The notes beneath the pieces were generated by a model, which had not been told where the DNA came from, did no database searches, and saw only the letters and a program-made list of their open reading frames with translations. A DNA stretch of 36,422 nucleotides from positions 1-36,422 of the forward strand of contig UYFQ01000499.1 of NCBI GenBank assembly GCA_900617105.1, read 5' to 3'. This DNA comes from Hydrurus foetidus. Lineage: Eukaryota. A program made the translations under genes and the position numbers. Positions 4,130 to 35,877 of the stretch are shown here, piece after piece (positions within the stretch are counted from its first letter, which is position 1; every line of letters starts with the position of its first letter).

Positions 4130-4903
4130 ATGGACAGCAGCTCAAGCGAGGATGTGCCGAAGGCCAAGAAGGTCAGGGCCACGATAAATTGGACTGACAC
4201 AAAACTCGAGGCTTGCCTACAGCAGGTCAAGGTCAGCAAATGCCATACAGGCAAGGGGCTCACTGCAAAGTACGAGCTTGTGGCATCGATTTTAAATGCC
4301 AAAAATGAACACTTCAAGGATAGCGTCTTAACTGGGCCTAATCTCAAAGCAAAGGTTGATAAAGCAGTCATCAACTATGAGGGAAAGTTTCTATCCATGG
4401 AGGCAAACAAATCCGGATTTGAGGGTGACCGCGACGATGAGAAGAACTACACATCGATAGAGCTCCTCGCAAAATCTCTATATCAGGACATCAAGAAAGA
4501 CGAGGAATCGAAAGTAGCCGCGAAATCAGGCTTGGATGACCTCAGCAAACAGAAGGCAGGATTGGAGGCTTCTGCGTTGGGGCTTTCAAATCGGCCCATG
4601 AAAGCCGCAATCAGTCGGACATCACCCTCTGACAGATCCTCTCGAGAACAGGAGAGCAGAGCCTCCACGATTAACACACCTGTTCCAGCCGAAGATCCTA
4701 TGGGCTTATTCCTCGAAAGCTTCGCGAAATCAAAGACCCAGGAGGCAACAATCAGTATGCAGCGTTGGGAAGAGGAAAAAAGGGTGGCAAATATTCGTGA
4801 GGCGATGGCAGAGAGAAACATGCTTTTGGAAGAAAGGAAGTTAAAGCTCGCTGAGGATAAGCTACAGTATGATTTATTACTACTGAAATCTCAAAACCGG
4901 TGA
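4130..4903 (+). CDS. Myb/SANT-like DNA-binding accessory protein of the Harbinger-group element (257 aa)
   Basis: Intact ORF inside the TIRs; INWTDTKLEACL...KYELVASILN...LTGPNLKAKV trihelix-like pattern and C-terminal coiled coil. Confidence 0.75.
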   Translation: MDSSSSEDVPKAKKVRATINWTDTKLEACLQQVKVSKCHTGKGLTAKYELVASILNAKNEHFKDSVLTGPNLKAKVDKAVINYEGKFLSMEANKSGFEGDRDDEKNYTSIELLAKSLYQDIKKDEESKVAAKSGLDDLSKQKAGLEASALGLSNRPMKAAISRTSPSDRSSREQESRASTINTPVPAEDPMGLFLESFAKSKTQEATISMQRWEEEKRVANIREAMAERNMLLEERKLKLAEDKLQYDLLLLKSQNR

Positions 4904-4948
4904 ATGATCGACTTAAATTTTGAAGTATACTTATACGATATTAAATGA

Positions 4949-6227: not shown

Positions 6228-6639
6228 CGCTTTGACATTTGATTATCAGTGTCGTCAGCCGATAGTGGAAGATACTGACGTTCTAAGCTTGACAAATACT
6301 TCTTTGCCAACGAAAATTCGATTTCTCTCCGCGGAAACACAGATTCTCAAAAGTTTTGTGTAGAGGGGCGCGGTGCACAAAATTTTCTTGCGGAAACACT
6401 CTAATACCGTTATTGGGCATTGTAACATACTCTGCGTACATAATCGTACGGGAGTCAATTTTCGTGTCGGTGTACATATATCTCGAAAATGCACACCGGA
6501 TTATAAATATATATATTTATTTATTTTTTTTTCAAAAAAAATTAATTTTTTTTTTTTTCGAAGTGATATGCAAAATTAAAGTAATTGCATCACAATTGAA
6601 TCCAATGCTTTACATCTTTGCTATACTTCACTTATACCT

Positions 6640-9600: not shown

Positions 9601-10239
9601 CGTAGCACCTGCTAGTATGTTGTTCGGGAATCAAGTAAATCTTGATAGAGGTATTCTTATACCCAATCCGGTAATTCGAAACACTGAAAAGAGCTCAGCT
9701 CTTATATCTAATATGTTATACATACAAGATCAAGTAATGCTAAATGCAATTGCAAAAGTAACACTAGCAAAAGCAAGACATTTAGTGAAAAATGCCAAAC
9801 CATTGACTGTATTTCCAGTTGGTTCATATGTTTTAGCAAAGTATGCTGTGGGGCCACCCACTCGTTTACACACTAAATGGCAGGGACCATTTCAGGTCAT
9901 TTCGTATATCGATTCAGAATACACATTACTTAATTTAGTGAATAAATCTGAACGAATTACCCATGCAAGTAATCTGAAGCAGTTTATTTTTGATCCTTCA
10001 AGAACATCTGCTCCAGATATTGCTAGACGGGATTATATGGAATTCTTTGTTGAATCCATTGTAGAACATCGTGGAGACACAAAACGATTAAATTCGCTGT
10101 TTTTAAAGTAAAATGGCTCAATTACGATGATTCACATAATTCATGGGAACCATGGAATGCATTAAGAACATGCGACAAACTACACGATTATCTTCGTTCA
10201 AATCAAAAGCTCAAGAAATTGATGCCTAAAAACTTCTAA
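6640..10239 (+). pseudogene. pol: pol of element A: partial protease, RT, RNase H, integrase, chromodomain; frameshifted
   Basis: IDLIIGR (protease C-term), RFCIDYR, DLTAGYHQ, LPFG, YLDD, TDASDYGIG, H-X4-H...CPCC, DFIG/SDKG/ERAN, KWQGPF, then FFVESIVEHRG...KVKWLNYDDSHNSWEP; frame breaks near 7655, 8575 and 10100; stop at 10237-10239. Confidence 0.95.
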
Positions 10240-10251
10240 ACATTAATTTGT

Positions 10252-10356
10252 TATTATGATGTGGTATCTTTTGAAGATTTTTTAGCCTAATTTTTTGCCC
10301 TCTGGGTTTTTATGGTTTTTTAGTCAGTAAGAATCTGACATACCCACATCATAATA
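10252..10356 (+). promoter_or_regulatory. Conserved structured 3' UTR element (ENE-like multi-way junction) of element A
   Basis: 13-bp closing stem 10252-10264/10344-10356; internal motifs shared with element D at 36317-36413 on the minus strand. Confidence 0.65.
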
Positions 10357-10619
10357 TATGTTATTTTGTACATACATTAATTTGTATTGATTTACAAAAT
10401 AAACTTATTTCCACGACCACTCCCGACTCTCTTTAAATTTTGTTATTTTGTTAAATTTCGTTTTACTATTTTATATTGAAATCTTTTCTTTTTCTTGTAT
10501 ATTTCTGTAATCGAATTACTTTTCATGTAAATATGTTAGTATCATTTTTAAATTTTATCTTATTTTTAAAAAAAATATAGCTTAATTAGAGATAAGTGGG
10601 AGTAGGGTCATTCTCTGTG

Positions 10620-10636
10620 GAGATAAGTAGGAGTAG
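10620..10636 (+). promoter_or_regulatory. Polypurine tract of element A (GAGATAAGTAGGAGTAG)
   Basis: Abuts the 3' LTR; near-copy at 10589-10605; 16/17 identical to the PPT of element D. Confidence 0.9.
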
Positions 10637-10854
10637 TGTAGCCATATGCCATTTAGTATGGCATTATGAGCTTCTAGGACTATCGGTCTACAGATCGGTC
10701 TACAGGGTCGTAGGCTTCCAGCCTCACCCTTACAACGTGTACTCTGCTATCATCTAGCTAGTCCACGTAGAAGTTACCCTAGCTACGGCTTTCCCCTGTA
10801 ACTAAGACTTCAGCTCCTCTCCTTTCCTTTCTCTCTTTTGCCATTCGGACTACA
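10637..10854 (+). repeat. 3' LTR of element A
   Basis: Direct repeat of 2286-2503, followed by TSD CAAC. Confidence 0.97.
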
Positions 10855-11389: not shown

Positions 11390-12740
11390 ATCAATATTGA
11401 AAGAATGCTTCATTTAAAACCGTATATCATGGTTGGGGAAAGTTTGTTATTACCCACTGTGATAGTACCGGGCCCAAGGTCCCGATCCTACCGGGTACCG
11501 ACTATACCGGATCCTACTGGGTATCGACCTACCGGGTACTACTGCTGTCACTGCAGACTGTTGTCTCGTCGTAGCCATTTACAGCCACCACGTAGAAGTT
11601 AGCCTCCCTAGCTTCTAGCATAGCCGCCTGTAAACTAACCAAAGCCTACACTCTATTTCCTACCCTTCCTCGGATCACACTACTATCAATCTGACGAATG
11701 AGCAATGGGTGATTGTAGAAGGTGTTTGTGCTATTCTAGCATTGTTCAAGTTTGTCCAGAAGATAATGGAAGGAGAAAAGCATGTGACTGTCAGCCTAAT
11801 ACCAGGTAAAATACGTACTAAAATGCTTTACTGAAATTGTCACACGCTTGTTCCTAGGAACATTCTACTCCTCTTTATAACATTTTGCACTCTTCAGGCA
11901 TGATCAACCAAATCCGATTAGGCCTTGGAAGGGCGGACTCTGATGCCAATACAAGCGCTGCTGCAAGATTGGTTCTTAATAAGATTACCGAGAAATTTAA
12001 TGAGGAGTTTGGCACAGGTTGTGCTGGTACAGTTTTTTCGGACCATGAAAAAGGAGGATCATTTCGTAGGTTTAAAGGTTTTCAACTGAAGACAATGATC
12101 GCCACTGCATTGGACCCGAGGACAAAGATGCTTGTTGGTAACACACAAGAATGCAATATAAATTTATGTCAAAACATTATTTAAGATTAAATACATTTTT
12201 ATCACAGGCATACCATCAACGTCAATTAACCGTGAGCAAGTGTGGACGGCAATGAAGGATCTCATGATTGAGCTGTGGGTAATGAGACATAACGCCGGGG
12301 TCTGGAGTCCCGAAATTGCAAGAGCAAGAGCTTTACCAAGTGATGAGGACCCATAGGGAGAAGAAGAAGAAGAAGAAGAAGAGGAGGTTCCTGAACCTGG
12401 TCCTCCTCCATTGAATATGCATGAAGTTCAACGAGCAGTTACTGCAGAACTTAATGCGTAAAAATCTATACTGAGAATAGATATGAGAGAGACATTAGAA
12501 AATGGTGACAAAGGTAAATACATTGACCGATTAACCTGGAGGAAGGATCGCATGGAAAGCTCTCCAACGCTTTGCCAGATAGCAAGGAAAGTACTTCGCA
12601 TTCCTGCGACTTCTGCCCCATCTGAGAGAGTTTTTCTGTAGCAGGACTCACCATTTCGCAAATGTGTTCTAGACTAGACAGCGATAATGCTTCGTGTCTT
12701 ATATTTCTCAGAGACAACTGGGACCTTAGTTATCAAATGA
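11390..12740 (+). pseudogene. hAT transposase C-terminal remnant with introns
   Basis: IERMLHLK...LTNEQWVIV...MEGEKHVTVSLIP, ATALDPR, and dimerization motif LCQIARKVLRIPATSAPSERVFSVAG; GT-AG introns near 11806-11898 and 12139-12208; N-terminus missing. Confidence 0.9.
11458..11679 (+). mobile_element. Solo LTR B (chromovirus lineage related to A and C) inside the hAT transposase
   Basis: TGTGA...TCACA ends; shares CCAAGGTCCCGATCCTACCGG with LTR C and CCACGTAGAAGTT with LTRs A and C; flanks CCAC/CTAC; removing the LTR plus 4 bp restores the hAT frame LLPTINLTNEQW. Confidence 0.9.
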
Positions 12741-13484
12741 ATTCTCCGCAAGTGGAAATATTGAATTAATCGTATAATGTTTAAGTTAATTAGTGAGTCG
12801 CATTTCCATATGATGTCGCACTAAGTGGATCATTTTTGATATAGTTTTAAGAATAAGATAGTGAATAGCAGATGAAATGACGTCACGCAATAAGTTAACG
12901 TGTTTTCGTAACATGCGAAGATTGTATACCAATTTTAATGACCAAATTGATATTCTAAATCAAAAATACACGAATTTGGCCCGGTTTCTGTATTTTGGCC
13001 GAGAATTTGGCTAGTTTGTTCAGTCATTCATGTGGCCAGTGGCTAGGCTAACAATCAGGCCTTCTTGGCTAGCGGTTTTGGCTAAGATCCGATAAATGAT
13101 GCTAGCCACCACCTCTAGAAATTTTAGGCAGAAGTACGTGAAATCGGTCGAAATAATGGTACCGAAAAGTTCATACGAATCTGGGAAAGGTTTGGGTGAC
13201 CGGTGAGGAGGCTGACCGGACCTTGCAAACGGTCCTCGACATAAAAATTAAAAATGTCTTGCCATAGTATTTACTATTTACTATTTACAGTACAAATAAC
13301 AAAGAAGTATACTAGATGAGAAGGGTGACAACATGCCGAAAAGGAGATTATTTGTATTGGAAGTGCACATGCTAGCGAATTCGAGCTTTAGATAGATGTA
13401 TGTGATCCCCCTCTCCTAACTTGAGTTGAAATCGACTTCAAAATTTATCGATATTCCATCAGTAGTCACTACCAACGGATACAA

Positions 13485-16400
13485 ATGGAAGACCTCAACA
13501 GCACTCTCGCGTCTCTTCAATTAGAGGATTTCGCCTCCGCAAAAATAAAAATTGATCAACTCTTTGTCGAATGGTTGTCAACAGAAGGTTTACAATTCAT
13601 CGACGCCATTTTATGCTCTGACGACTTACTCAGCAGCGACGATGAGGGAGGATTAAGCTGCCGGAATGGGGACTCTTTCAGCGGACTATCTTATGGCTTA
13701 GGACCCATTCCACCAAGATCTCCAACCAACACAAAAAAGTCACCAAAGAAGCGAACGCAATCCGAGATGCAGAACAATACCAATTCAAATATCAGCAATA
13801 ACACTTCACTATCACTGGCAGCGGAGAATTCAAAATCCACAGAGGGTTTGGGTTTAGCTGGAGTAGATCAGGCTCAAGGCAGCTCGTCGGCTTCAAAAGA
13901 CGAAGCTGATGGGGATTCTGAAAACGAAGCTCAAATATCTGCACGACGGCGATCTAACTTTGACAGCATACCACTTTTCTACGTACCTGGTGGCTCTAGA
14001 CAGAAAGATCAGAAATCTCGGATACGGCAAGGTAACGAGTGGCTGATAATGTCGCAAGAATATCCTGCTGTCCCTCGTTTCGTACTGCTTCCAATGCACT
14101 CATCGACTTTCACACATCATTTGCGAAGGAAATCGCATTGAAGAGGATCAATTATCGCGTAGACTGCCTGAAATTGAATCCCACTTCGCTGGATTCGCTG
14201 AAGGGATCCCTGTAGGCAGCTTTGTGCACATGACAAAGAGGATGTGTGGTATACCTTCCTTTTTCAACTTGCCCCTATGCAAAAGAATCAATGAGAGATT
14301 TGGCGATAAAACAGAAAAAGATAAGGCAGATTCATCCACCAGCAACTCTTCAGACTCCAGGCAGGCACACAGTATTCATGTGAAGCTAAACACTTTCTTG
14401 AAATTTTGGGAAGCCGAAATAGAACCCTATGACCGACTAGAGCGATTTTTCAGAGCCATCAAGCAGCCTGACGCAGAATGCATATACAAAGACGACTTCG
14501 TGCCGTTCATCCAAGAGCTGCTGCACTTTCACCCTGGCTTAGACTTCCTAGACAATCACGAGGAGTTCCAGCGTAAATACGCTCTTACCGTGATAACGCG
14601 CATCTTCTACAAAGTGAACGTGTCCCGCACCGGTAAGCTGTCTCTGAAGGAGGTGCGGAACAGCACTCTCATGAACGCCTTCATGCACGTTGATGAAGAG
14701 ACAGACATCAACAGAGTGATGGACTTCTTCAGCTACGAGCACTTCTACGTCCTCTACTGCCGCTTCTTCGAGCTCGATGCCGACAAGGACTCCAAGATTG
14801 GCAGAGAGGACCTGCTGAGGTATGGGGAGCACTCCCTCTCAGAAGCCATCGTTGACAGGTAACTACTGAGGGGCCATGAGTTGTGTCATATTCGTACATG
14901 TTGCGTTCTCATATACTTGAAGCTCTCGAGGACTCCGCGGTAGGGAGTGTCTTCATGTCTGACACCCGCATGAAGGAGTGGCACTGCACTGCACTTCTCA
15001 CTCAGCAACATTATGCCGCGCAGAATATTCCAAGTGGGTCTGAGGCCGTTCTCAGACGGGCGTGAGGGTGGTTTCGGCCAAACAGGGATGTCTTTCCCTG
15101 ACTTCATATTCTTCATGCTGGCCGAGGAAGACAAATCTTCAGAAGCAGCTCTGCGATACTGGTGAGTCTCTCTCTCTCATTATCTTTATTTTACTTTATC
15201 TGCCTATCTATCTCCAACTACCTTTCTATTTTTCTTCATCCACCACTTTATTTCTCTATCTATCTCTTTATTTCTATCTTTCTCTTCTTCTTGACACTGT
15301 TTCCATCGGAAGACATCCATCCATATCTCCACACGTTGTTATGACTCTCTGTGACCCGACTTTGCTGAAGATTTCATCACGTGACAGCACACTACACCAC
15401 ACTGCTTTACAGGTTCGTGTGCTGCGACTTGGACGGAGACAGCAGACTGGCACCTCAAGAAATGAGACACTTCTACAAAGTGCAGCTGCACAGAGTAACC
15501 AGTCTGGTGAGTCTGTCAACTCCACCGCTATCCTACTCCATGGCGTGACATTCATCCGCCCTGTTCCTCCATCATGCGGTGCAGCGATTGAGTTGCATTC
15601 ATTTGAATTGAGTTGATTGCATGATGCGTGAGATCATCAGTGTGAAAAGCGCTTGAAGAGTTAGTGCAAGACGATGTTGGTTTGGTTTGTACGACTTGCA
15701 GTGAGTCTGTCCCGCACACCTTGCTACTGCGTGACGTGATGAGATGAGATGTGATATGATGACATGTGATTTGCTGCACTGAGTCTCGCCACCTCTAGTA
15801 TTTAAGACACCGTGTAATGCACACTCGTTCCGTGTGGTGTGCGAGGGCGCATGTGTGTATGTGCAGTGACGCATCGCAATCTGCGCGTCCGTCTAGCAGG
15901 GCGCACTGCACTATCCAATCTGTGCTATCTCTGGGGTTTCAACACATATGGGGTTCACGCACTTAATTGAATGGCTATCACAGGGTCAGGAGGGCATCGA
16001 GTTCCAGGATGTGCTGTGCCAGATGGTGGACATGATCTGCCCTCTCGACAGCCAGTCCATCACGCTCAGCGACCTCACGAAACCGAACAAGAGGCACATC
16101 AGCGGTGAGTCTTCCTTTGGCACTGTCATTGATCACATAATATCTCGGAATAGCGCAGAGTCTCACCTGTAGAGGATAGAAAGATGTAGATGATAGAAAG
16201 ATGTAGAGGATAGAAAGATGGCTGTCGGTGGCTCCTCGTTGCAGAGATGTGTATATTTATTCCTGTGCTTGATTTATTTATGTCCCTCTCATCGGTCGTA
16301 CTTACTAACTACCCCTCAGGCGTTCTTTTCGATGTTCTTTTCAACTTGCACAAATTCCTCCGATTCGAGACGCGAGACCCCTTCCAGGAGAAGCAGAAGA

Positions 16401-16954
16401 GGGACGACGTGTTCGCCACCGACTGGGACAGATACGCCTACATGGAGTACCACAGGCTCGCATCAGAGGAGGAAAACTTTGCTTCGAATTCCAACGACCA
16501 GTTGAACAACATGGACATCGACAGAGGGGATCAGAACATCAACGCTAGTGTGGGAAGTCTGTCAGACAGTGACAGCGACAATGACGGCGACAGCTTAGAG
16601 TGGGGCTCGGACTCCAACGAGGACGACCTTGACGATGCTAACTCGAAGTACCAAGACGGTCGGGACGGCAGAGGGTCCAAGGGGGGGGATGGAGGGCTGG
16701 GAGCCCACATCTCAGATTGGTCCTTGAACAGTGCCAATAGCAGTAGCAGCACGAATAGCAGGAACCAGTCCAATGGAGGGGGAGGGGTGCAGAGGGCGAA
16801 GGGGGGGTCCTCGCAGGCACAGCAGTCCCAGTCCCAGTCCATCCAAGGGGGGTCGAGGGGTTCGCAGGCATCTGTCGGTGGAACTAACCAAGCCAGCAAC
16901 GCTTCTGTAGGGGCGAAGGGTGGTGGCAATGCAGGTGGCAGACGGAGGGCGTAG
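13485..16954 (+). CDS. PPP2R3: Protein phosphatase 2A regulatory subunit B'' (PR72/PR130 family, EF-hand), 6 exons
   Basis: Motifs KIDQLFVEWLS, HPGLDFL, FFSYEHFYVLYCRFFELDADKD, FMLAEEDK, CDLDGD, LFNLHKFLRFETRDPF, TDWDRYA. Exons 13485-14031, 14129 or 14144-14858, 15024-15161, 15413-15506, 15984-16104, 16320-16954; GT-AG introns with consistent phase; TACTAAC branch point near 16303. Confidence 0.95.
16168..16220. repeat. Three copies of a 17-bp intronic tandem repeat (TGTAGAGGATAGAAAGA)
   Basis: Read directly; one mismatch in the middle copy. Confidence 0.85.
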
Positions 16955-17818
16955 CATAGCGGCTGTCCCGCTCTATCAGCTCCGTTACTCAATGCGTCAT
17001 GATGTCCTCTTCCTCTATACCGCGCAGCACGTCTACAGTAAGGTAGGACTCACTGGCCACCCAGCAACTGCCCCGTGCAGTATGACGTGGAATCGGGCGA
17101 ACGCACATCGAACTCTTGGTGCGCCAGTGTGCCCACTAACGGTTTCGTTGAGTTGCTGTAGCGGTTCGGGATATAGAATTTAGCAGAAATTGTCTCTTCG
17201 CTCCCATTGAATTTCCTCCCTCCCCCGACCACCACTCACCCACCTCACTCCTCATTAGTACTTGGTATTATTTGGTAGAAATAATTGCTTTCTGTGTGCT
17301 TTGGGGACGCCCAAAATGCCGGTACATGGTATGACATAACTAATCGTAAGACGATCAATTAAACGAAGTTTTTGCGCGGAGAAGGACATGGAGTGTCCAG
17401 TGTAGCGCATTGCCACCGGATAGGACCGGAAATTTGCTTCCGTCCCTTCATTGACAGAATTCAAACCACGACGCCTTTGTCGACACAATCTTCAGTGGAG
17501 AGGCAAATGCCTCAGCATTACTCCAGACGAAACACTAGTTCACAGGAATTAAATCTCCAAGGCTGAAATTATGATGAGCTCGGGAATCGTACTCTATTTT
17601 TAATAGGAGGTGAAGCATATGATAGCGGTCCCTTATTCAACTGAGTCAGCATCCACGAGAATTACGCTGGAGCTTCTCTCTCAAATTCAATTACAAGAAG
17701 TAATTTGGTGCAGTCAACTACCCTCTCATTGTTATTCAATGGTTTTCAAAAAAAAATTTCATCAATACGCAGCAGTGTGTTGTATTTTTTTGGACGTTTA
17801 TTTTATTTTTATTTTTAA

Positions 17819-18182
17819 GAGTCACCGTCCCTATCCGTGCTCCTCCCCCCACTTAAAAACGTGTCACAAGAAAAAAGTCAAACCGTTTTACATTTTATTT
17901 TAAGATCTTTTAAAAACAAATTTAAGATCTTTTCTGCCCGAACTTTAATCTTATATAACCTGTACCCTTTCAAGATGTAGCTCCAAATCTACTGATGTCA
18001 ACAGGCAACATCGCGCACTTCGTGCTAAACTGCGCTCGAGCGTTAAACGCAAGCATTCAAGTCAACTCAACGTACTCGAAAATATCACTTCGTTGAAGGC
18101 CACTCGATATTTGAGGTAGACACGAAAGATTTTGTAGGCGTTCTCTTCGCGAACTCAAATCGATCGATAGGGACGGTGACTC
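17819..18182. mobile_element. Non-autonomous TIR element (MITE), possibly Sola3-like
   Basis: Perfect inverted repeat AAGAGTCACCGTCCCTATC (17817-17835) / GATAGGGACGGTGACTCTT (18166-18184); left junction TTAA|GAG, right CTC|TTTTAA; no internal ORF. Confidence 0.75.
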
Positions 18183-18424
18183 TTTTAAAAAATAAAATAA
18201 AATAAAATAAATAAATAAATAAAATAATAAACTAGAAATAAAACTGTTGTCAAGACATTTCGTATTCTGTGTTCGATTTCACGGCATACAAATAAGAATC
18301 GACTTCAGTTTCGCTGCGCGCCGTCTGCGAGTCGTGCATCGTGTGCACAGCGGAGACAAATAGGAGATAAGAATGCACGCATCTAACCTGCAACCTCTGA
18401 TAGTGAGATCAAATCTACGTCACC

Positions 18425-23350: not shown

Positions 23351-24211
23351 GCATTCAGATATCTTATGTCCATCATTTGATAGCCATCAGACGCGTCTTC
23401 TTTCACAGATGAAGTGGTTTTTCTCCAGTCACATTCGAAGTAAGTTTTCTCCGGTGCAGTGTACGTTCATCACTACAATATGTTCATGAAACCACCCTTG
23501 GAGAGGACATTTTATTCGGCACCCATTTACGGACATACTAAATCAATTGAAGATATACTTTAAAACTGAAAAAAACACTTAAAGGTGTGTAAAAATACTA
23601 AAACATGTAATGTTCTACTACAAGATTTGTATAGTCAAATGTGTGTAACTTCTACTATTTCAATAAAAGCTGTACTAAAAACAACGAAATGATACTATTT
23701 AGATAGACCATTGTACTAATACCTGTGAGTCCGTTGTTGGTCTACCAAACGATAGATATCATCCGAGTTTATTTCGTGTGCAGCCAATCAAGGCTACGTC
23801 AACAAATCAAGGCTTTTCTAACCCTATATCTACTGATAGCTGTAGCCATCTACTCATTTATTAACCCTAACCCTGACCGCCCCCGAGCCATTCTAATCCT
23901 AACTGAAACCAGAAGAAAAACGACATGACTTCTACGTGATAGCCCGAAGTTACTATTATGAAATTCCAAAAAAAAAGTAGAAATAAAAGTGCAGCATCAT
24001 GAATTCAGTATTGCGCACCAATTAAAGTACGACTTCCATGAAATAGTAGGTCGATCTTTACTTTAGGGTATAAAATCCATATTTTAGTACAGCTGTGTTT
24101 TGGTAAATTTTTCAAGATTTTGGTACAGAATCTATGTTATAGTATTTATTACCAGATTTTAGTATGCCCATATATTTGCCCGATTTTATTCTGCTGTCGT
24201 ACGGCTGGTTC

Positions 24212-24473
24212 TGTTGATAGCGCACGTACAACATAGTTAACACGCACCGTACGCAGCGTACACACCAGGGCGCACGTACAACACATGTAACACACATTGT
24301 ACGTAGCGTACATACACTACACATCGTACGCAACTATCATTTTCAAACACTGTCAATTGCAGCAACAGTTAGCCATGCGTATTGACTTCCATCCCGCATA
24401 ATTTAATTCCAACACCTGTGAAACACGTACATTCGTTTCACCTTTGGTGCGCAATTTAATCTGCGGATCAACA
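24212..24473 (+). repeat. 5' LTR of the young Copia
   Basis: Direct repeat of 29578-29839. Confidence 0.97.
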
Positions 24474-24484
24474 GTTGGAATTAA
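24474..24484 (+). promoter_or_regulatory. PBS-position 11-mer GTTGGAATTAA complementary to LTR 24403-24413
   Basis: Exact reverse complement of TTAATTCCAAC inside the LTR; abuts the LTR end. Confidence 0.75.
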
Positions 24485-24491
24485 CCTCATC

Positions 24492-25586
24492 ATGGCCACT
24501 TTTCCGGTGACTTTAATGGATCAACCTCGACAAAATTTTCGGTCATTTTATCGGGCAGCAGTCGCCTCCTATGGTGCTGCGTGCACCACAGTCCACCAGC
24601 ACGGCCTGCTTGGATTTATCTTAAATGATGCACAATGGGAACAACTTCCCGGAAATCTCGTTCCCAACGCCGATCCTGAACTACCAAACGAAGTCGTGCC
24701 TCGCCCTACCATCATTCTTCCCGTCACGCCGGCTGCCAACGCCACTGCCCTCACCATCAAAGTCTGGGAGAAGCGCCTCGCAGAAAATGTTCTAGTGACC
24801 GATAGCCTAAGATCTCTCAAAGCACAACTTATCGCCAGCGTCCAACCAGCTGATATCGTCATTCTACACGACCCATTTTTTGGTCTCCTCAATGTGCCGG
24901 CATTGACAATAATGATACACCTTACAGAACTCCACGGCACGTTGAACAGCACCGACTTCGCCCACCTTCGCTCTCAACTGTCACTCCCGATGACACCCCA
25001 CGCATCTCTCCAGGATTTTATCGGGACACACCAGTTACTTCACGATCAATTCTCAGAAGCTCAGCAACCCCTGTCCGAACTTGACAAGTGTCATCACTTT
25101 CGCGAAGCAGTTAAAACGCTTGCACACATCAATCATGCAATCGACTCCTACTTAGTCGCTCATCCCCTAGTGGGGGGACAAAACTTCAGAGCGCTCACCG
25201 CACACACGCTCCAATAAGCACCCAACTTCACTCCAACAGCTGCAGCGATGGGTTACGCAGCGACCATCACCCAAAATCACAGCACAATTCTCGACGTTGA
25301 CAACGTGTCCGCACTACTGCACACACCAGCATTCGCCGCTCTCATCACAGCCGCCGTAAAGGCGGCCACTCCGGTTAATCCTCGCGGCCAACGCACCCGC
25401 ACCCCGGCTGCGAAACGTCCCCCGGCTGCTGCCCCCCAAAAAGACAGACTGTATTGTTTCCACCACGGGTATGACAGTCATCGCGGTTCCGACTGTAGAC
25501 ACATGTTCACGAATGACTTCGCCGCTGATCAACGCGCCACTACAAATCACAATACTATATCCGGTGCGTCCACCGCTCGATTCTGA
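24492..25586 (+). CDS. gag: Copia gag with one internal in-frame TAA (25215-25217)
   Basis: ORFs 24492-25217 and 25218-25586 share a frame; C-terminal knuckle YCFHHGYDSHRGSDC (CHHC type). Confidence 0.85.
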
Positions 25587-28500
25587 CGGTTAGGGGCGGC
25601 GCAAGAGCTTTTCTGTTATCTTCCTGCACGGTGTAACTTAACTCAAACAACCTCTTCAGTCGTCCCCCCTTCCCTTTGTGCCGACACTGGATCCACGCAC
25701 ACGTTGCTCCGTGCATCAGATGCCCCATATATCAATAGCATCGAAACAAGTCTTCATGTGCTCCTCCCCAACGGCGCTACTATCTCATCTATCGGTGCTT
25801 GCAACCTCGATTTTCCAAACCTCCCGCACACTGTGCCGTGTCACATCTTTCCAAATGACGTTCTCAATACTTCCCTATTATCCATATCGCAACTTTGTAA
25901 AATGGGATGTGTCGCTACTTTCTCGGCCTCCGATGCCTCAATCACATTCAGCAACCGCCCCGTACTACGTGGCCTCAAATCGCCCGACGACAACCTATGG
26001 ACTCTACCTTTTCTAGCCTTCAACACTGCACTCCTTCCCACAGTACGTGCTGCGTACGCACTGTCATCAGATGCCTCGTTTGTAAAATTCACGCACGCTT
26101 CACTTGGTAGCCCCTCACTCACTACCTTGACGAAAGCTGTTCGTCGTGGCTATCTTCACTCGTACCCGCGACTCACATCACTCATGTTAAATGCTCATCC
26201 GCCAATTAGCATCGCCACAGCTCAGGGACATTTGGATCAACATCGCCAAGGTCAAAATTCAACTCAGATTCCTGTCACCATCTTTGACACAAACGACACC
26301 GATGAGGATCTCGTGCCAGCTGACGCTCCCACACAGCTCACCGCTTACACACGAGTTGTCCTTCTGTCCGATACTTTACATTCCGACCTCACCGGTCGGT
26401 TTCCGGTAACATCACACAATGGTGCTCAATACATATTTGTGTCAGTCTTAGACGGTTACATCCATGTTGAAACAATGAGAACAAGGCATCATACAGAGTA
26501 CGTTACAGCCTACAAAAAGACGCTAAACTTTTTCGCTCAGCGTGGCCGCCGGCCCGCCTTTCAACGCTTGGACAACGAGACATCCGGTCCTTTAGAAGCA
26601 TTCGCAACTGCCAACAACATCAGCATACAGTATTGCCCGCCGCACACACACCGCTCACTCAAAGCCGAACGAGCAATTCGCACTTTCAAAAACCACTTCA
26701 TAGCCACTCTGGGCACAGTAGCTTCAGAGTTCCCCATGACGCTTTGGGATGAACTGCTGCCGCAGGCCGAGCTTTGCCTGAATCATCTGCTGCCCTACAG
26801 TCCCAACCCCGCTGTATCAGCGTATGCTGGAATCCACGGCGGTGCGCTAGACTTCACTCGACATCCCATCGCTCCAGCCGGAACTCGTATCCTTATCCAC
26901 GACAAACCCACTGTTCGATCCTCCTGGGCACCGCATGGAGTCCCAGGATACTACCTCGGCCCCGCGCTGCAGCACTATCGGTCCTACCGGGTTTGGTCAT
27001 CCACTTCCAAAGCAACCCGCATCTCCGATACTTTAGCGTGGTTTCCTAGCGGGTTTACAGTCCCCGGACCAAGCCCACACGATAACCTTCTCGCCGCAGC
27101 TATAACGCTGAAGAAAACACTCACAGAATTTAATTCATTGCCTACACAATTTCGTACCAATTCGCAACCCGGAGTTTCCGTCATAGCATCCGTCATTACC
27201 GATTTGGCCGGGATCTTGGGTACAGACCCGGCCGGAACTGTGGGTACCGATCCGGATACCGTAAGTACACCCGCACCAACGCTAGCTCTCCCTGCGCCAA
27301 CGTATTACATCACACTCATAGCACCTTCAGTCGCTGCTATCCCTCTTCCTTTGCCGGACTCTCGCCAAGAACAGAGGGTGGTCCCCAATATAAGCACTAC
27401 CGATCTACCTCCTTTATCCCCTCCGTTTGCAGAACACGAAGTGCCTCAACCTCTTGTGTCCCCATCAGTCCAGATACCAGCCGGTCCACACCAACATCTG
27501 AACACTTCCACCCAATATGACTCTCCCAACATTCGCATCACAAGCCATCATCCACGACGACCATCGGTACCGCTCCCACCTCAGATCTACAGAAATGCTA
27601 CCCACCCACCTCAGTTCGCAGCTGCCCTTACCACGCTTAATCTTGACGACCACGGCCAACCGTTACGTTACTCAACCGCCAAAGCAGGGTCCAATGCACT
27701 ACTGTGGCAACAAGCCGAATCCGAAGAGCTCGACAGACTTCTTGCAACTGAAACGATTCGGCCCATTTTCCTGGCTCAGCAACCTATTGATCGCAGACGG
27801 GATACAACTTATTACAACCCTCAGACAAAAGAAAAGCAAAATGCTTCAGGTGAAAGAACATACCGCATCCGTGGCACCATCGGTGGCGATCGTATCCATT
27901 ATCCCGGCCCGACAACTGCTCGAACCGCTGCAATGCCCCTGGTAAAAATCCTTCTTCAATCAGTCATATCCGACGGAAGCAAATGGCTCACCATTGATAT
28001 CAAAGATTATTACCTAAACACGCCACTTCCTCGCCCTGAGTACCTGCGCATCGCGTCAAAATTTCTCCCGTCTACAGTAATTCATCAACACGACCTTCAG
28101 CAATTTTTTCATAATAATGCTATCCTCTTCCAAGTCAACAAAGGTATGTATGGGCTCCCCCAGGCAGGACTCCTCGCACAACAAAGACTCATCACTCACC
28201 TGGCATCCGAAGGCTATCATCAAACCGATACTATTTGTCTCTTTCGCCATGTGACTAATGGAACGGTGTTTTCGCTTGTCGTCGATGACTTTGGAGTCAA
28301 ATACACAAATATGGACGGCGTCAACCACTTAATTCAAACGCTCCAAGCCTTATACACCATCACCGTTGACTGGACAGGTTCCAAGTATCTCGGTTTCTCG
28401 ATTGACTTTGATCAACGTCATCGTACTGTTACGCTCAGCATGCCAGGTTATATTGCTAAAGTGCTTCAGCGCTTCGCGCCATTACTCAAAATTGGAGCCA

Positions 28501-29414
28501 ATTCTCCAGCTGTATACATCCCACCCAAGTATGGCGTCGGACAACAGACACCACACATCGACACCAGTACACGTCTATCACCCGCAGAAACTACTACATT
28601 ACAAGAGATTGTTGGCTCCCTTCTCTATTACGCCAGAGGTGTAGATGTAATCATATTGCCGGCGGTAACACACCTGTCGTCCCTACAAGCGCAACCTACA
28701 CAAGACGTTCTCCAGGCCGCGCAACGCCTCTTAGCTTACTGCTCACGCTATCCCAACAATGGTCTCCGATACTATGCATGCGATATGATCTTACATATTC
28801 AGTCGGACGCTTCCTATCTCTCTCGTCCCGGAGCTCGTTCTGTAGCTGGAGCTCTCTTTTACCTGGGAAATATTGGTCAACCCACACACATCAATGGTTC
28901 TGTACACGCACTCAGTTCTATCATACCTGCTGTCGTGGCCTCTGTCGCTGAAGCTGAATATGCAGCTCTCTTTCACGCTGGCCAAGAGGGAATTTGGCTC
29001 CGGCATATTCTCCAATCGCTCGGATATCCTCAACCGTCAACAACCATTCTGTGCGATAACAAATGCGCTGAGGGAATCGCATTAGACACCATAAAGCCAA
29101 AACGCACCAAAAGCATCGACATGCGTTTCCACTGGATTCGTGATAGAATTCGTCAAGGACAATACACAGTCACATGGCGCAAAGGAGCCGACAATCTTGC
29201 TGATTTTTTCACAAAACCTCTGCCTGTTCACTTACATCAAAAGCTTATGCCGCTGCTCGTTCACATTCCTCCTGCCCAGTACGCCACAAACACCACAAGC
29301 TCAGCATCTCGTGCACTCACTCATCGAAACAAAAAGGCTTCAACCACCGAAACTCCCCCTAATTATACTGATTTGAAGGACGAGTTGGTGGGATTCACCT
29401 ACAGTGCTTCGTAG
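25587..29414 (+). CDS. pol: Copia pol (protease, integrase, RT, RNase H), open and in frame with gag after TGA
   Basis: LCADTGSTHT, HSDLTG, RLDNE, AERAI, RGTIGGDR, IDIKDYYL, KGMYGLPQAG, VVDDFG, QSDASYL, EAEY, CDN, ADFFTK; no stops from 25587 to 29411. Confidence 0.96.
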   Translation, partial: RLGAAQELFCYLPARCNLTQTTSSVVPPSLCADTGSTHTLLRASDAPYINSIETSLHVLLPNGATISSIGACNLDFPNLPHTVPCHIFPNDVLNTSLLSISQLCKMGCVATFSASDASITFSNRPVLRGLKSPDDNLWTLPFLAFNTALLPTVRAAYALSSDASFVKFTHASLGSPSLTTLTKAVRRGYLHSYPRLTSLMLNAHPPISIATAQGHLDQHRQGQNSTQIPVTIFDTNDTDEDLVPADAPTQLTAYTRVVLLSDTLHSDLTGRFPVTSHNGAQYIFVSVLDGYIHVETMRTRHHTEYVTAYKKTLNFFAQRGRRPAFQRLDNETSGPLEAFATANNISIQYCPPHTHRSLKAERAIRTFKNHFIATLGTVASEFPMTLWDELLPQAELCLNHLLPYSPNPAVSAYAGIHGGALDFTRHPIAPAGTRILIHDKPTVRSSWAPHGVPGYYLGPALQHYRSYRVWSSTSKATRISDTLAWFPSGFTVPGPSPHDNLLAAAITLKKTLTEFNSLPTQFRTNSQPGVSVIASVITDLAGILGTDPAGTVGTDPDTVSTPAPTLALPAPTYYITLIAPSVAAIPLPLPDSRQEQRVVPNISTTDLPPLSPPFAEHEVPQPLVSPSVQIPAGPHQHLNTSTQYDSPNIRITSHHPRRPSVPLPPQIYRNATHPPQFAAALTTLNLDDHGQPLRYSTAKAGSNALLWQQAESEELDRLLATETIRPIFLAQQPIDRRRDTTYYNPQTKEKQNASGERTYRIRGTIGGDRIHYPGPTTARTAAMPLVKILLQSVISDGSKWLTIDIKDYYLNTPLPRPEYLRIASKFLPSTVIHQHDLQQFFHNNAILFQVNKGMYGLPQAGLLAQQRLITHLASEGYHQTDTICLFRHVTNGTVFSLVVDDFGVKYTNMDGVNHLIQTLQALYTITVDWTGSKYLGFSIDFDQRHRTVTLSMPGYIAKVLQRFAPLLKIGANSPAVYIPPKYGVGQQTPHIDTSTRLSPAETTTLQEIVGSLLYYARGVDVIILPAVTHLSSLQAQPTQDVLQAAQRLLAYCSRYPNNGLRYYACDMILHIQSDASYLSRPGARSVAGALFYLGNIGQPTHINGSVHALSSIIPAVVASVAEAEYAALFHAGQEGIWLRHILQSLGYPQPSTTILCDNKCAEGIALDTIKPKRTKSIDMRFHWIRDRIRQGQYTVTWRKGADNLADFFTKPLPVHLHQKLMPLLVHIPPAQYATNTTSSASRALTHRNKKASTTETPPNYTDLKDELVGFTYSAS

Positions 29415-29577
29415 ACCGACACCCATACCACCGCCGGCGAGCACCCTTTCGGGGATCGAACCGACGGCCATTCGATTATGATTGATCATCACTGACCTAT
29501 CACGTCACAACTCTGTCTTTTTGTCCTGAAAATACGAATACATATCTGTTCAAGCATGCACCATGTTTGAGAGGGTG

Positions 29578-29839
29578 TGTTGATAGCGCACGTACAACAT
29601 AGTTAACACGCACCGTACGCAGCGTACACACCAGGGCGCACGTACAACACATGTAACACACATTGTACGTAGCGTACATACACTACACATCGTACGCAAC
29701 TATCATTTTCAAACACTGTCAATTGCAGCAACAGTTAGCCATGCGTATTGACTTCCATCCCGCATAATTTAATTCCAACACCTGTGAAACACGTACATTC
29801 GTTTCACCTTTGGTGCGCAATTTAATCTGCGGATCAACA
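29578..29839 (+). repeat. 3' LTR of the young Copia
   Basis: Direct repeat of 24212-24473, followed by TSD GGTTC. Confidence 0.97.
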
Positions 29840-29940
29840 GGTTCTTATGTATGTTGGATATTGCGTGCATAGGGCTGATGTTAGTAGAGAGGTGTACTTA
29901 CGTACGTTACTTTCAGGCCTGAATGTAACGCACTACACTT

Positions 29941-30214: not shown

Positions 30215-33200
30215 TGTTGCGAACACTAAGCTTCGTGCACGGTGAACAGGGACGCCGTGCACAAGTTTTAATATCAAGTACTTGACTATCACATAGTTAT
30301 TTTACGAGCCTCAGAACGTTCCCGTAAGCTTCACAGCTACCTGAACCGTGGATTTCTGACATATTAAAACTAGAGGACAGCAAAGTGTTGCCGCCCAAAC
30401 GCGCAGCGGAAGCAAAAGATTCAACACCGGAATGCATGCTCTGCATAGGAAAATTCAACAACATCGTAGCGTGGAATCTCGAAATGAGCACTTCAGTGGG
30501 CGCCGTGTATGGACTCACTGCCAATTTCCTGCTGACGAACATCAGATATGTACCACCACTGCCTCGCAACGAGGATTTCACAGTAGTGTACCCGGTACCT
30601 GCGGAGGGGGAACGAGACGCTGTGGCGATCACCGCAGCACTTACTGCAAAACCCGCATGAAGTCAATCATACAAGCGAGGGAAGACGAGGCCAAAATCTG
30701 GTCTCTAATGTGGCACAAAATGTCACCCGCGTCGCGCTGCAAATTACAGGAACAAGCCGAATATACGGCAGCGCACGTCAGGAAGGACTGCGTCGTCCTG
30801 TGGGATCTCATCAGACGCACTCACCTAACACACATAAACGGCGAAGGAGATCACCTACAACTGCTCAATGTGAAAGAGCAGGAGTGCCGATACGAGGTCC
30901 TCAAGCAAGGTGAAAGAGAACATCTAGCTAACTTCATGACTAGATTTGAAGCGCAGGTCCTGGCTTGCAGAAGTGCCGGGGTACCAGAAAACGCGCGATG
31001 GACTTCGTATACAAGCTGGACAAGGCGAGATACGGCGGCATGGTGGGAGATATGCGCAACGCTGCCAACAGACTGGAACCAAACGCATACCCACCGACGG
31101 TCATCGCCGCTGTCCGAATTGCAACCGGATACGTGACGAATGACCCAGGGTTCTCACGGCCACCCGGTACAGATACCGATACCCACACTGCTCTGGTAAC
31201 AGACACAGACCCAACCGGCAAGGCCGACGACGTTAAACAAGCCAGGAAAGGAAAACCCGGCACGAAGAAGAAAGGCAAGTCCACTGTGGAATGCTTCGTG
31301 TGTGGCAAGATGGGCCACTACGCCAGGGACTCTGACATTTGGGCCGTCCGACAGCGACGATGGGGAAGAGGATCTCGAGGAAGAGGATGTGGCCTACGTT
31401 ACAACCTTAGAGAGGGTGCTGTTCACACGGGACGACGTACTCCTGGACAGTCAGGCGTCGGTGGACGTATTCTGCAACCGAGAATTGCTAAACAACGTGA
31501 GACAGTCAGAGACGAGAGTTGTGCTGAACGGGGTTCAAGCCAAAGCGTCTGGAGTTTCTATAGATCAATAAGGGGATATCCTAGACGTGGGGAAATGCTA
31601 TTTCAGCAAGGAGGCGACAGCGAATATTTTATCATACGCTGTAATGGTAGACGCAGGCAATGACGTGAGTTACGACAAGGTTAACGACCGATTCATACTC
31701 AAGCCGGCTGGGAGCCGGAGAGTGTACTCGTTCTGCAGGAAGAAAGTCAGTGGAAGCGAAGGAAGGTTTTACTGTTGTCATGTGAAGACAATGGTACAGG
31801 AAGAGCCTACGTCGTATCCGGAATCAACAGATCATGCGATGATAGAAATCGTTGAAACAATCTGATGAAATACACCAAGCGTGAGATCGCTGGTGCAGAC
31901 AGGGCGCGGCTGCTGCTGGCGAAGATGGGTTTCCCATCTGTGAGAAACGCGATCGACATTGCAACTTCGACGTGACAGCTAGGGATTTCTCTATAGCTGA
32001 GGATATCTATGGGAAGGATATTGCGACGATGAAGGGTAAAACAAAGAAGCGAGTGTCCATATGTGCAGACATAACTGTGGGTGCCGCTGTGGTGCAAGTG
32101 GAACAAGTTCTGTCAATAGACGTGATGTTTGTGGACGGCGTGCCGTCTCTAATAGGACTGGCAACGCCGCTGGACCTAACCATGGCGGTGACCCTGTCAG
32201 CATTCGACTCTGCTCAGGGCCCGAGGTCAGCGGCCGTCGTTAAGAAGGGAATAGACGGATTCGTTGCAACGCTCGCATCGAGAAACTTCATCACGAGGAT
32301 GATAATGAGTGACGGTGAGGATGCAGTGGGTAAGATCAAGGAGGATCTCAACATGCTGGGTATTGAAGTCGACATCTCTGGGGCAGGAGGTCATGTGGCG
32401 AGAATAGAACGGAAGATACAGACGGTAAAGGAACGGCTGCGAGCGTACATTGCTCACCAACTACCATTCACTCTAACATATCTGGGCGTGGCAATGTTAG
32501 TACTATTTTGCGTTTCTAGGTTGAACTATCAAGTTTCATCGGTCAGCGGGTAATGTTCTCCGGGAGACAGACGGACGGGAAGATGGATTTCAGAGCAGGA
32601 TTCGGGGAATACGCGCAATGCACCGTGCCGAACACCAACAACACCATGGAACCGAGGACTGAAGACTGCATCGTTATGCTGCCGACAGGAAACAGAACAG
32701 GATCGGTCAAGATGATGTCGATCAGTACCGGTAAGTTGATCACAAGAGATCAATTTAAAATACTACCGATGTCGTCTTATGTTATCACAAAGCTGAACGA
32801 GATGGCGATGGCGGAGGGAAAGAAACTACTCCGGAGATCCAAGTTGGTGTACGAAGTCGAAAGAGGGTTGCAAATGACTGAAGAACCCACGTACCTACGG
32901 CCGACCCAAGATCCTGCGGCCAACCTGGACCCTGTAGTCACAGCCAACCCCTACACCCAGCTAGATCTGGATGACGGCGAGAGAGAGGAGTACCAATTCG
33001 ACCCCGCGATGGTGAATGACATCATGGGATACCCTGAAGACTACGATGAGCCGATCGTGCAGGGTGGGGAACTCAATATGGAAGACTTGGATGTTAAGGA
33101 GCTCCAGGAGTTCGGACCGGGTACACCCGGAGTATACCATCATCCCGACGCGGCGGTACCGGTCACTCCACCAGGGAATACACAAACACCTATATACACG

Positions 33201-34737
33201 GCTGTGTCGACGGGATTTGACATGGGAGCGGGAGGAACCCTCGCACAAACATACGGTGACCACGACGTGGCGCTGTACGCTGATCGTACGTACCAGAGTG
33301 GAGGCGTGTCGGAGGAACGTGCGATGAACATCACGGTGAAAGAAGCACTTAAGAGTTGGGGTGACGAAGCTAAGAGGGTGATCAAGAAGGAATTGAAGCA
33401 AATGATCGACAAAAGAGTATGGACTCCGGTGCGCGTGTCGTCGTTGAGTACAGCTGAGAAGAAGAGCATCATCCGATCGCAGATGTTCCTTAAAGAGAAG
33501 TACCTCCCCACGGGGAAGTTCGAGAAGCTCAAAGCTAGACTGGTGGCTGGGGGCAACCAACAGGACAAGGATCTGTATGATGACATTTCCTCGCCTACAG
33601 TGTCGACTAGTGCGGTCATGACAGTAGTCGCAGTAGCGGCGTTTGAGAATTGGAAAGGCAGCGTGATGGACATCGGGGGTGCATTCCTAAATGCAACGAT
33701 GGGAAAGGTAACTGAGCATATGCGACTAGACCCGACAATGTCAGCCATGTTGGTTGAGCTAGACGGAACGTACGGCACGTACACGGACAGCAGAGGATGT
33801 ACGGTGGTACGGCTTGAGAAAGCCCTGTACGGGTGTGTGGAGTCCGCAGCACTGTGGTATAATAATCTATCTGCATCGTTCATGGATGCCGGTTATAAGA
33901 AGAACCAATACGAGATATGTGTATACAATAAGAGGAACGTGAATGGAGTGCAATGTACAGTGGCTGTACACGTTGACGACCTCATCATCACAAGTAAAAG
34001 CGAAGAGATGATCGCGGACCTAAAGGGATTCATAAAGAATAGGTATGGGGAAATAACGTCTGCAGACGGACCCGTGCTGAATTATCTTGGTATGGTATTT
34101 GATCTATCTATTCGAGGCCAAGTTAAAATGACTATGCAGGGATACGTCGAGGACACCGTAGCGTACAGCGGGATCGTTGGCCACTCCAGGAGCCCTGCCA
34201 CCAGTGGACTGTTCGACACCAGAGATGGTGCGGTACTGGCGTCAGAGACGCAGAGATCATGGTTCCATAGTGTGGTGGCCAAACTAGCGTATCTGGCGAA
34301 GCGTGTGAGACCTGAGTGCCTTACCGCTGTGGCGTTCCTTGCGACACGGGTGACGAAATGCACCGTCCACGACGTCGAGAAGCTGAAGTGGGTAGTACAA
34401 TACATCGCGTACACGAGGGAGCGAGGAGTGATCCTGAGACTGGAAAAATTGGGGGTGTGCGTACGGTTGTACGTGGACGCCGCATACGGGGTGCACGGTG
34501 ACGGCAAGTCGCACACAGGGAGCTGTGTCGTGATAGGAGACGTCGGAGCTGTCCACTGCAAATCATGCAAGCAGAGCATTGTGACCAAATCAAGCACAGA
34601 AGCGGACCTGATCGCGCTATCGGACTCGGCGGATCAAGGGCTGTACATCCGGAACTTCCTGCTGGCACAGGGGCACAGGGTACCGCCAGTTACGGTATAC
34701 CAGGATAACACGATGGAGAGAGGGAGATCTGGAGCAG
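30215..34737 (+). mobile_element. Second Copia lineage, decayed, interrupted in RNase H by element C
   Basis: Putative LTR from TGTTG at 30215 (possible end CAACA 30426; no second copy in the window); coding remnants 30385-34737. Confidence 0.9.
30385..34737 (+). pseudogene. gag-pol remnant of the second Copia with several frameshifts and stops
   Basis: CFVCGKMGHYARD knuckle, LLDSQAS protease, IDVMFVDG/SDGE/IERKI integrase, KARLVAGG/DIGGAFL/KALYG/VHVDD RT, YVDAAYG/SSTEAD/YQDN RNase H. Confidence 0.92.
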
Positions 34738-35877
34738 TGTGGTAGTTCCGGGTCCAAGGTCCCGATCCTACCGGATAGTACTACGGTACACTACTCACCG
34801 TACACTACAGTCTGTTGTATCGTCGTAGCCACTTACAGCCTCCACGTAGAAGTTCACCCTAGCTTCTAGCCTTTAGCTGTAACTAACTACCTCTCCCAGT
34901 CTTTCCCCTCTTCTTTGCCCATCCGAGTCATAATAGCGCTATTCCCACTCATCCTTCTTCGCTTCTTTCTCTACCTATCTACTTGTCCCAAACTTTTAGA
35001 TAGATTTCCAACGGAGTAGATTCACTCCACGACTTCCGAGGAGTCGTTTTCTCGTTGAGCCCGAAACTCCGAGAACTTAGTTTAAGTTTACAGGAGTTTG
35101 GCGTAGCCGCTTCCTGCTTGAAACCCTCCGAAAGGTGTCTTCAAAAGTTCGATTTTGGTCGAAGTCGCGAGAGGCTTCCCAACTCGAAATTAAGGAGTTC
35201 TCCACTAGCAATTTGGACACCGGTTCCACTGCTAGCGACATCAGATTAGTCTAAGGACGTCTTTTGGTCAACAGGAGTTTCTTCCTTCATCCTTAACAGG
35301 ACCTAACATTTGCAATCACCCAAAATTCGGCTTTCACGCCATAGAATTTTTCTCGACAAGAGTGGGTTGAAATTCTTTCATTCGCTGTTACTTGCGTAAA
35401 GTACCCGATACGCGAACGAGGCGAAGCTCTCGCAAAAATTTTTTGACGAGGAAAGCTCGTCCGCGCTTCGATACAACTCGATTTATATCGACTGCTCATC
35501 CTACGATAGGAGATGGAAGACGACGGTCTACATCCTGAGCCTGAGCCAAAGGAGCCAGACAACGAGCATGAGATTGATGAGGAAGGAAACATCCTTATCG
35601 TCTCACAAAGCTCACAATCGTCAAGCATGGGGTTTCCCCAGACGCTTCAGACCCAGCGTGAGATATTCATCCTACGGGGAGATTATATTACTCGGCAGGA
35701 TGCTGAAGAATTCTATGAGCAAGCACAACGCTTGCCTCACTTGCATATTAAACAATGCATGCAATGTCAAGCAATCGATTTGCTTCATGTTAAAATCTTA
35801 ACTGATCAGTCGACACTGGCAGTTATTACCAACGAGCAACGCCTTAATTGGCAAAACCTCCTTCCGATAGAGAGTGT
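34738..35877 (+). mobile_element. Chromovirus-lineage element C: 5' LTR (34738-34932), 5' UTR and start of gag
   Basis: LTR starts TGTGG and resembles LTR B; followed by palindrome AATAGCGCTATT (34932-34943); gag similar to that of A; breaks the Copia RNase H after ERGRSGA. Confidence 0.88.
35513..35877 (+). pseudogene. gag: gag N-terminus of element C, interrupted by element D
   Basis: Position after the 5' UTR and similarity to A gag; the ORF runs into the inverted LTR D at 35878. Confidence 0.75.

Follow-up and report, generated by a model that had tools for sequence, protein, structure and literature searches.

Introduction

The start of reverse transcription is a defining trait of LTR elements, and the locus described here raises the question of how it is achieved when no tRNA site is apparent. 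In a window of 36,422 nt from Hydrurus foetidus (contig UYFQ01000499.1; the window is the whole stretch of DNA that was analysed) a copia element carries, directly behind its 5' LTR, a short site that is complementary to a segment within the same LTR. A sequence-only reading of this window had proposed that the element primes itself instead of using a tRNA. We conclude, with a probability of roughly 85%, that the lineage of this element would start minus-strand DNA from the 5' terminus of its own transcript, similar to Tf1; this is a candidate mechanism. The pairing on which that proposal was built has gained strong support from covariation across families, while priming itself is what we infer from it.

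Results

The copia element spans 24212-29839 on the (+) strand (Table 1), and its two LTRs of 262 nt each show 0 differences. With identical LTRs and a target-site duplication (TSD) it is a recent insertion. Its earlier assignment to copia holds, since pol has an RVT_2 match (Pfam, E 4e-9, aa 781-964) and the domain order is protease, integrase, reverse transcriptase (RT), RNase H; TG...CA LTRs, TSD and polypurine tract (PPT) complete the set of Ty1/copia features. The pol motifs DTGS, HSDLTGRF, VVDDF and ADFFTK follow in copia order; the acidic residues of the putative RNase H motif look intact. The gag product matched no Pfam family, and a search of 24200-25700 against Rfam gave 0 matches at E up to 1. 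Directly before the LTR, [AG]GGGTG is present in 19 of 20 representative relatives. The gag reading frame of this copy is interrupted by TAA at 25215-25217. Because contigs of all four sequencing runs (X1-X4) carry C at position 25215, this stop is peculiar to the present copy, which hence cannot make full Gag. The U3 of the LTR contains an internal tandem duplication (24217-24330, period ~49 nt), and sister variants of it occur in runs X2-X4.

Table 1. Coordinates of the copia element and of its predicted priming signals in the window.
Feature	Positions	Strand	Basis
Left target-site duplication, GGTTC	24207..24211	+	same 5 nt at 29840-29844
5' LTR, 262 nt, TG...CA, 7-bp terminal inverted repeat	24212..24473	+	equals 3' LTR
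Initiator-like CATA; inferred transcription start at 24398 or 24399	24397..24400	+	motif position in relatives, sister contigs
Paired part of predicted self-primer, predicted 3' end C24413	24403..24413	+	exact complement, covariation in relatives
60-nt loop (rest of R and U5), two predicted hairpins	24414..24473	+	folding
Putative primer-binding site (PBS) adjoining LTR	24474..24484	+	complementary to 24403-24413
gag frame, 364 codons, ATG at 24492, then TGA 25584-25586	24492..25586	+	translation
In-frame TGA between gag and pol, CGG next; predicted bypass site	25584..25586	+	stop common to relatives
pol, 1275 aa, protease - integrase - reverse transcriptase - RNase H	25587..29414	+	RVT_2 and motifs
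Polypurine tract GAGAGGG + TG, adjoining 3' LTR	29569..29577	+	sequence inspection
3' LTR, 262 nt	29578..29839	+	identical to 5' LTR
Right target-site duplication, GGTTC	29840..29844	+	pairs with 24207-24211

The segment 24474-24484 indeed matches the reverse complement of 24403-24413 without a mismatch; the complement is limited to 11 bp, no 12-mer being found. The paired site begins on the first base past the LTR and pairing does not run into the LTR, in agreement with the earlier claim that the 3' C of the primer would sit on the base abutting the LTR end. Within the window, the segment 24403-24413 occurs only in the two LTRs (3' LTR copy 29769-29779), and the 3' LTR together with its own flank offers only 3 bp of complement. 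Dinucleotide shuffles of the LTR produced the 11-mer in 2 of 20,000 cases, and the figure is the same (2/20,000) when the site may start 0-5 nt past the LTR. In the predicted fold of the RNA 24403-24520 the stem closes a two-hairpin loop (z = -3.42; 0/200 shuffles as good), the second hairpin of which stops 2 nt short of the LTR end. The fold of the 60-nt loop has z = -3.0 here, and z lies below -1.64 in only 4/21 families.

A metagenome scan for relatives yielded 80 loci, many of them collapsed one-LTR circles; viral contigs gave 60 pattern matches and 0 relatives. In 31 of the 80 loci the whole stretch between the end of pol and gag, LTR included, is readable. Clustering at 80% RT-RNase H identity gives 21 families, with 41-60% identity to this element in that region. 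The first rule used to locate LTR ends required matched termini and recovered a stem of 9 bp or more in no more than 22/30; it missed families because of mixed TG/TA and CA/TA LTR ends and was replaced by an end-free test, in which the longest long-range perfect inverted repeat is sought in the PPT-to-gag region and the LTR end is not used. In this test the longest repeat begins just past an LTR-end-like xA[CT]A in 27/32 regions, namely in 26/31 relatives and in this element (background 0.04-0.15 per position). The five relatives that deviate are L065 and L069, which pair one base deeper into the LTR end, L059 with 8 bp, and L039/L040 (one family), in which pairing is imperfect; for the family counts the LTR end of these five was placed by hand. 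Among the relatives, L002, L003, L006, L011, L053, L069 and L076 have an LTR that begins with TA or ends with TA, and some of these are mixed-ended (TA...CA, TG...TA) instead of TG...CA.

Complementarity between LTR and PBS in related families, on which the sequence-only reading had staked its case, is widely present: the site pairs with the LTR of its own family over at least 9 bp in 19/21 families, and with the LTR of another family in 3/420 cross pairs. At the same time the site is represented by 20 distinct 10-mers in 21 families, and all four pair types are found at stem positions 4, 5, 8 and 9. When the site window is shifted by -12, -8, -4, -2, +12, +15, +20 or +25 nt, pairing occurs in 0/21. 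Stem positions 1-11 hold 220 Watson-Crick pairs, 0 G-U pairs and 11 mismatches (231 cells, 21 families), per-position counts that are biased toward pairing because the register was set to whichever run starting at the LTR end was longest. The compensatory changes that the same reading had singled out as the telling comparison are found as well. Mapped on a phylogeny built from the RT-RNase H of 30 elements, with two duplicates, the outgroup and the Spumella entry kept out of the count, positions 1-9 require a minimum of 62 changes on the binding-site side, 60 on the LTR side and 62 jointly; 60 of the 62 inferred changes are compensated. Such lineage-wide compensatory change is much stronger evidence than a complement alone, and at the level of sequence comparison the relatives settle that the LTR-PBS pairing is not of chance origin.

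Stem length varies from 5 to 15 bp between families and the loop from 36 to 129 nt; 11 bp is therefore not constant, and a rule of exactly 11 bp as in Tf1 is ruled out for the lineage. Pairing is weak in two families, L059 with 8 bp and L039/L040, where an A-C mismatch breaks the stem after 5 bp and further pairs lie beyond. The latter family also has no initiator-like motif at the usual distance and possibly departs from the mechanism. Longer loops (90-129 nt) are seen in L025, L028, L030, L032, L013, L014, L018, L021, L022 and L034, most of which share the site GTTACGAGTA.

A further 26 loci were also scored, and 14 of these pair over 9-15 bp. Among the other 12, three have no usable tail, and the sequence of four more (L031, L052, L056, L058) runs out within the LTR or at its edge. 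L029 represents a 3' LTR, and its match to L032 breaks off precisely at the LTR end that had been inferred (461), which checks the boundary independently. By eye, L016 resembles a 3' LTR with flank, and L064 seems to pair over 9 bp around a loop of 20 nt; L004 and L062 were left out of the pairing verdict. The remaining 23 of the 80 loci stand outside the counts, 22 being shorter than 2,400 nt and one having no RNase H end.

Among named sequences, the RT-RNase H is closest to one from the chrysophyte Spumella vulgaris (55% identity), and the named organisms among 23 RT/pol proteins are Spumella vulgaris and Cordylochernes. An RT-RNase H tree of 23 rows, which includes no TAR or named CoDi sequence, separates the lineage from plant- and animal-type copia proteins with support 0.998; identity to the compared proteins of these types is 22-26%, with 24% for a Centaurea copia protein. 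This low identity and the separate clade speak against a place within plant TAR.

Where would the RNA of such an element begin? In 17/21 families, against a background of 0.19, a CA[CT] motif is placed such that its A is 15-19 nt away from the 3' end of the primer; under the same initiator-like rule the held-out loci give only 8/14. With a looser motif, the stem reaches the A in 0/42 loci. In three families the stem stops one base short of this A, which would fit a start at the next base; they are too few to count. The motif resembles the diatom initiator consensus given as CAY+1A / TCAH+1W (PMC4686930). In runs X2-X4, contigs of sister families (among 25 of 118 pieces) match the element from 24395-24399 to 24484-24485 and differ outside, and among 40 of 68 listed rows no variants lie inside 24397-24416 or 24474-24484. 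These runs may be the source of the window itself and hence are not independent of it. The motif position and the onset of the sister contigs' match together predict an RNA start at 24398-24399, 4-5 nt upstream of the paired part. The start near 24403 and the 11-nt primer that had been suggested for this copy are therefore not borne out; stems in the lineage range from 5 to 15 bp. The sole contig from an RNA library over the site (run X1; 151 nt, depth 2, 5 differences, 24390-24539) reaches 8-9 nt further upstream than the predicted start; a contig does not reveal where transcripts begin, and this one may stem from DNA. Run X1 covers 7/30 bins at depth 2-3, which is insufficient to show a start or transcription.

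Discussion

The following course of events would account for these data. The RNA would start at 24398-24399, and its first 15-16 nt would fold onto 24474-24484, with 4-5 capped bases left unpaired. A cut after C24413, made by the element's own RNase H if the analogy with Tf1 holds, would free a 3'-OH on the base abutting U5. From there, reverse transcriptase would copy 24473 back to 24414, and the resulting 60-nt strong-stop DNA would then jump to the 3' R. During plus-strand synthesis the primer sequence would be restored to the binding site, just as tRNA ends are copied in other LTR elements, and Pol would be made through bypass of the conserved gag stop. Because the primer would be copied into its binding site, LTR and PBS sides would change together and without G-U pairs; the absence of G-U seems to fit such copying better than selection on RNA structure alone. 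Across the lineage the predicted primer is 14-19 nt long with an unpaired 5' tail, and 15-16 nt long in this copy.

Covariation demonstrates pairing, not priming. Hence the stem might be a leader structure involved in packaging, dimerisation or control of gag translation, with the primer coming from elsewhere in a GalEa-like manner. A stem probability of 0.94-1.00 in 29/32 folds would suit this explanation, as would the start of gag translation 7 nt downstream of the stem and the hairpin that fungal GalEa copia elements without a PBS retain at this place (PMC5445492). We nevertheless regard it as unlikely, because the stem always opens at the first post-LTR base, exactly where the 3' end of a primer must sit, and the two positions just inside the LTR are paired in only 2/21 and 1/21 families. 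G-U pairs account for 0/231 cells in the stems versus 10% in the predicted inner hairpins, a comparison in which the stem register was itself picked on Watson-Crick runs. Moreover, no other conserved candidate primer site is seen, and the described GalEa hairpin sits entirely downstream of the LTR.

Self-priming could also proceed from another copy of the segment, be it on a dimer partner RNA or at 29769-29779 if the start lay further downstream. The same 11-mer does occur in the 3' LTR, and the start site is a prediction from which the beginning of the X1 contig differs. Such an arrangement is very unlikely given that 17/21 families have the initiator-like motif at a distance of 15-19 nt from the end of the primer, that the loop is confined to 36-129 nt, and that the intramolecular stem is the predicted minimum-energy fold.

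Least credible of all is priming by the end or a fragment of a host tRNA, with TGG at 24476-24478 as the CCA-pairing start of a short PBS: TGG does lie within 0-5 nt past the LTR in 3/32 regions (this element, L043 and L049, each 2 nt in), yet 0/32 post-LTR sites begin with it, five close kin of L043 (L048, L051, L053, L055, L061) have lost TGG and keep 12-13 bp with the LTR by compensatory changes, no fixed tRNA end can match the 29 distinct 10-mers found in 46 loci, the sister-family contigs cease to match 9-10 nt past the T of TGG, and an 18-nt match would demand a G at position 61 of the tRNA, a position that is almost always C. Neither a TGG start nor a conserved half-tRNA complement, the usual marks of a copia tRNA PBS, is present, and no tRNA genes were found inside the window.

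Self-priming from the element's own RNA 5' end thus invites comparison with known systems. In Tf1 the first 11 bases pair, and cleavage by RNase H falls between bases 11 and 12 (PMC7175516). Tf1 and Tf2 of Schizosaccharomyces pombe likewise have a PBS complementary to their own 5' LTR, and the duplex in this copy is 11 bp; the lineage differs from the 11-base pairing of Tf1 in its 5-15 bp stems and in the longer predicted primer with its unpaired tail. Tf1 requires a pretzel of three duplexes (PMC10085805). A duplex of the U5-IR type beats shuffles (p<0.05) in only 5/21 families, this element included, and a U5-leader duplex in only 1/21; a conserved pretzel of the Tf1 kind is accordingly rejected. 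The Tf1/sushi group consists of Ty3/gypsy chromoviruses, whereas the present element is copia, with integrase before RT and no chromodomain matched in pol (Pfam, E 0.001), and is not a member. Most likely, by analogy, it works like Tf1 without belonging to Tf1/sushi.

Within copia, self-priming has been proposed before, and for Houba and Osr-1 the proposal reportedly goes back to Capy in 2005. An earlier suggestion for these two elements is cited by Neumann et al. (2019, PMC6317226), who predict self-priming for plant Ty1/copia TAR elements (89% of 203), the criterion being a complement of at least 10 bp between the LTR and the region 0-5 nt past it. TAR, with Houba and Osr-1, thus resembles the present lineage as copia with predicted self-priming. 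It differs in having plant hosts, in an argument drawn from the complement by itself, in contrast to the covariation available here, and in that most TAR elements (79%, PMC6317226) have one ORF whereas this lineage has a gag/pol stop. The literature searched, with Repbase and subscription journals outside it, yielded no report of self-priming in a stramenopile copia element and no experimental proof of it for any copia element. In the literature covered, experimental demonstration of self-priming is limited to the gypsy-type Tf1, and for the TAR copia elements of plants there is a prediction. The earlier remark that no demonstrated self-priming copia element came to mind stands as far as experiment is concerned and falls short in that the prediction for TAR was already in print (PMC6317226). 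The element is therefore not the first copia with proposed self-priming; as read from its sequence, it is set apart by a distant lineage, covariation evidence, a longer predicted primer and the lack of a pretzel.

Diatom CoDi elements share with this element the copia order, stramenopile hosts (here probably a chrysophyte) and a weak RVT_2 match, and its RT motifs presumably resemble theirs; the CoDi-like label of the sequence-only reading is a candidate assignment. CoDi forms branch 1 of copia in Llorens 2009 (PMC2774666), and in some CoDi elements gag and pol are separated by a single stop or frameshift (Maumus 2009, PMC2806351). CoDi-A is characterised by a chromodomain at the integrase C-terminus (PMC2774666), a trait for which pol here gave no match. 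The main texts of both papers (PMC2806351, PMC2774666) do not discuss primers. Fungal GalEa copia elements are described as having no PBS but a Conserved Hairpin Site, with no LTR complement found (Donnart et al., 2017, PMC5445492). They are similar in being copia without a tRNA PBS and with conserved pairing at the PBS position. In GalEa the hairpin has both of its arms past the LTR, and its first arm is palindromic, whereas here one arm is inside the LTR, and the GalEa motifs KARLVA/KSRLVI and TRPDI/CQPEA are absent from this element. Hairpin priming has been suggested to be the earlier mode, and whether self-priming preceded tRNA priming is debated (Benachenhou et al., 2013, PMC3601003).

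We lean, without great firmness, towards a wider reading, in which a large stramenopile copia lineage, here in chrysophytes, would have acquired self-priming independently of Tf1/sushi and of TAR, using a capped primer of 14-19 nt with a free 5' tail and no pretzel, its binding site being rewritten in each cycle so that the pair drifts freely. If true, tRNA-free priming would have arisen a third time, and covariation evidence for it would be available in a copia lineage for the first time. A deep copia lineage of this kind makes it possible to ask directly if the RT/RNase H of a copia element can cut its own RNA and use it as primer, for which young high-copy families with identical LTRs supply the material. 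LTR finders that require a tRNA PBS would probably overlook or down-rank such elements.

The gag/pol junction is a second feature common to the lineage. A stop precedes the protease in 35/36 loci scored (30 TGA, 5 TAG), and in 27/35 loci the frame of the stop is open for 340 codons or more ahead of it. C follows directly after 17/30 TGA stops, and the stop context (25584-25598 in the window, compared over 35 related loci) is often CGG or TGG followed by a G-rich run. An in-frame UGA between gag and pol is shared with Tca2, an element that is not known to self-prime. In Tca2 of Candida albicans, where this UGA is described, the junction by itself gave no readthrough in S. cerevisiae (PMC2194720), and bypass in the present lineage is thus a prediction and not a given. 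It is predicted by analogy with Tj1 and Tosmo1-3, which have an in-frame TGA at the same place (PMC10085805) as this element does.

Additional observations on the window

The window holds further mobile sequences. A gypsy element at 2286-10854 has identical 218-nt LTRs, the 4-bp TSD CAAC, and RVT_1, RNase H and integrase domains; no TGG site is found in it, and its LTR complement is 5 bp at most. Its post-LTR site (2503-2514) is a 12-nt palindrome, AATAGATCTATT, that begins at the last A of the LTR. A related LTR at ~34740-34930 is followed by AATAGCGCTATT, in which the centre is altered and the palindrome retained. The palindrome AATAGATCTATT is reminiscent of the palindromic first arm of the GalEa hairpin site and, by analogy, may likewise serve as a signal for priming, without a tRNA or through a dimer. 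A second, decayed copia element (30360-34745) has a zinc knuckle and an RVT_2 match (E 2e-25) and is 20% identical to the element studied here; its LTRs and primer site were not found. An LTR-like stretch at 11460-11680, akin to the LTR at ~34740, is probably a solo LTR. Two inverted-repeat pairs, 3930-6403 (50 nt, 74%), inside the gypsy element, and 17797-18206 (35 nt, 83%), are possibly DNA-transposon or MITE ends. The window also contains a host gene, interrupted by introns, that encodes a regulatory subunit of PP2A, B'' (13425-17049), and it points to a chrysophyte as the likely host. The best named match of its exon at 14050-14862 is from the chrysophyte Paraphysomonas (63%), followed by named diatoms with 49-55% and oomycetes with 46-48%.
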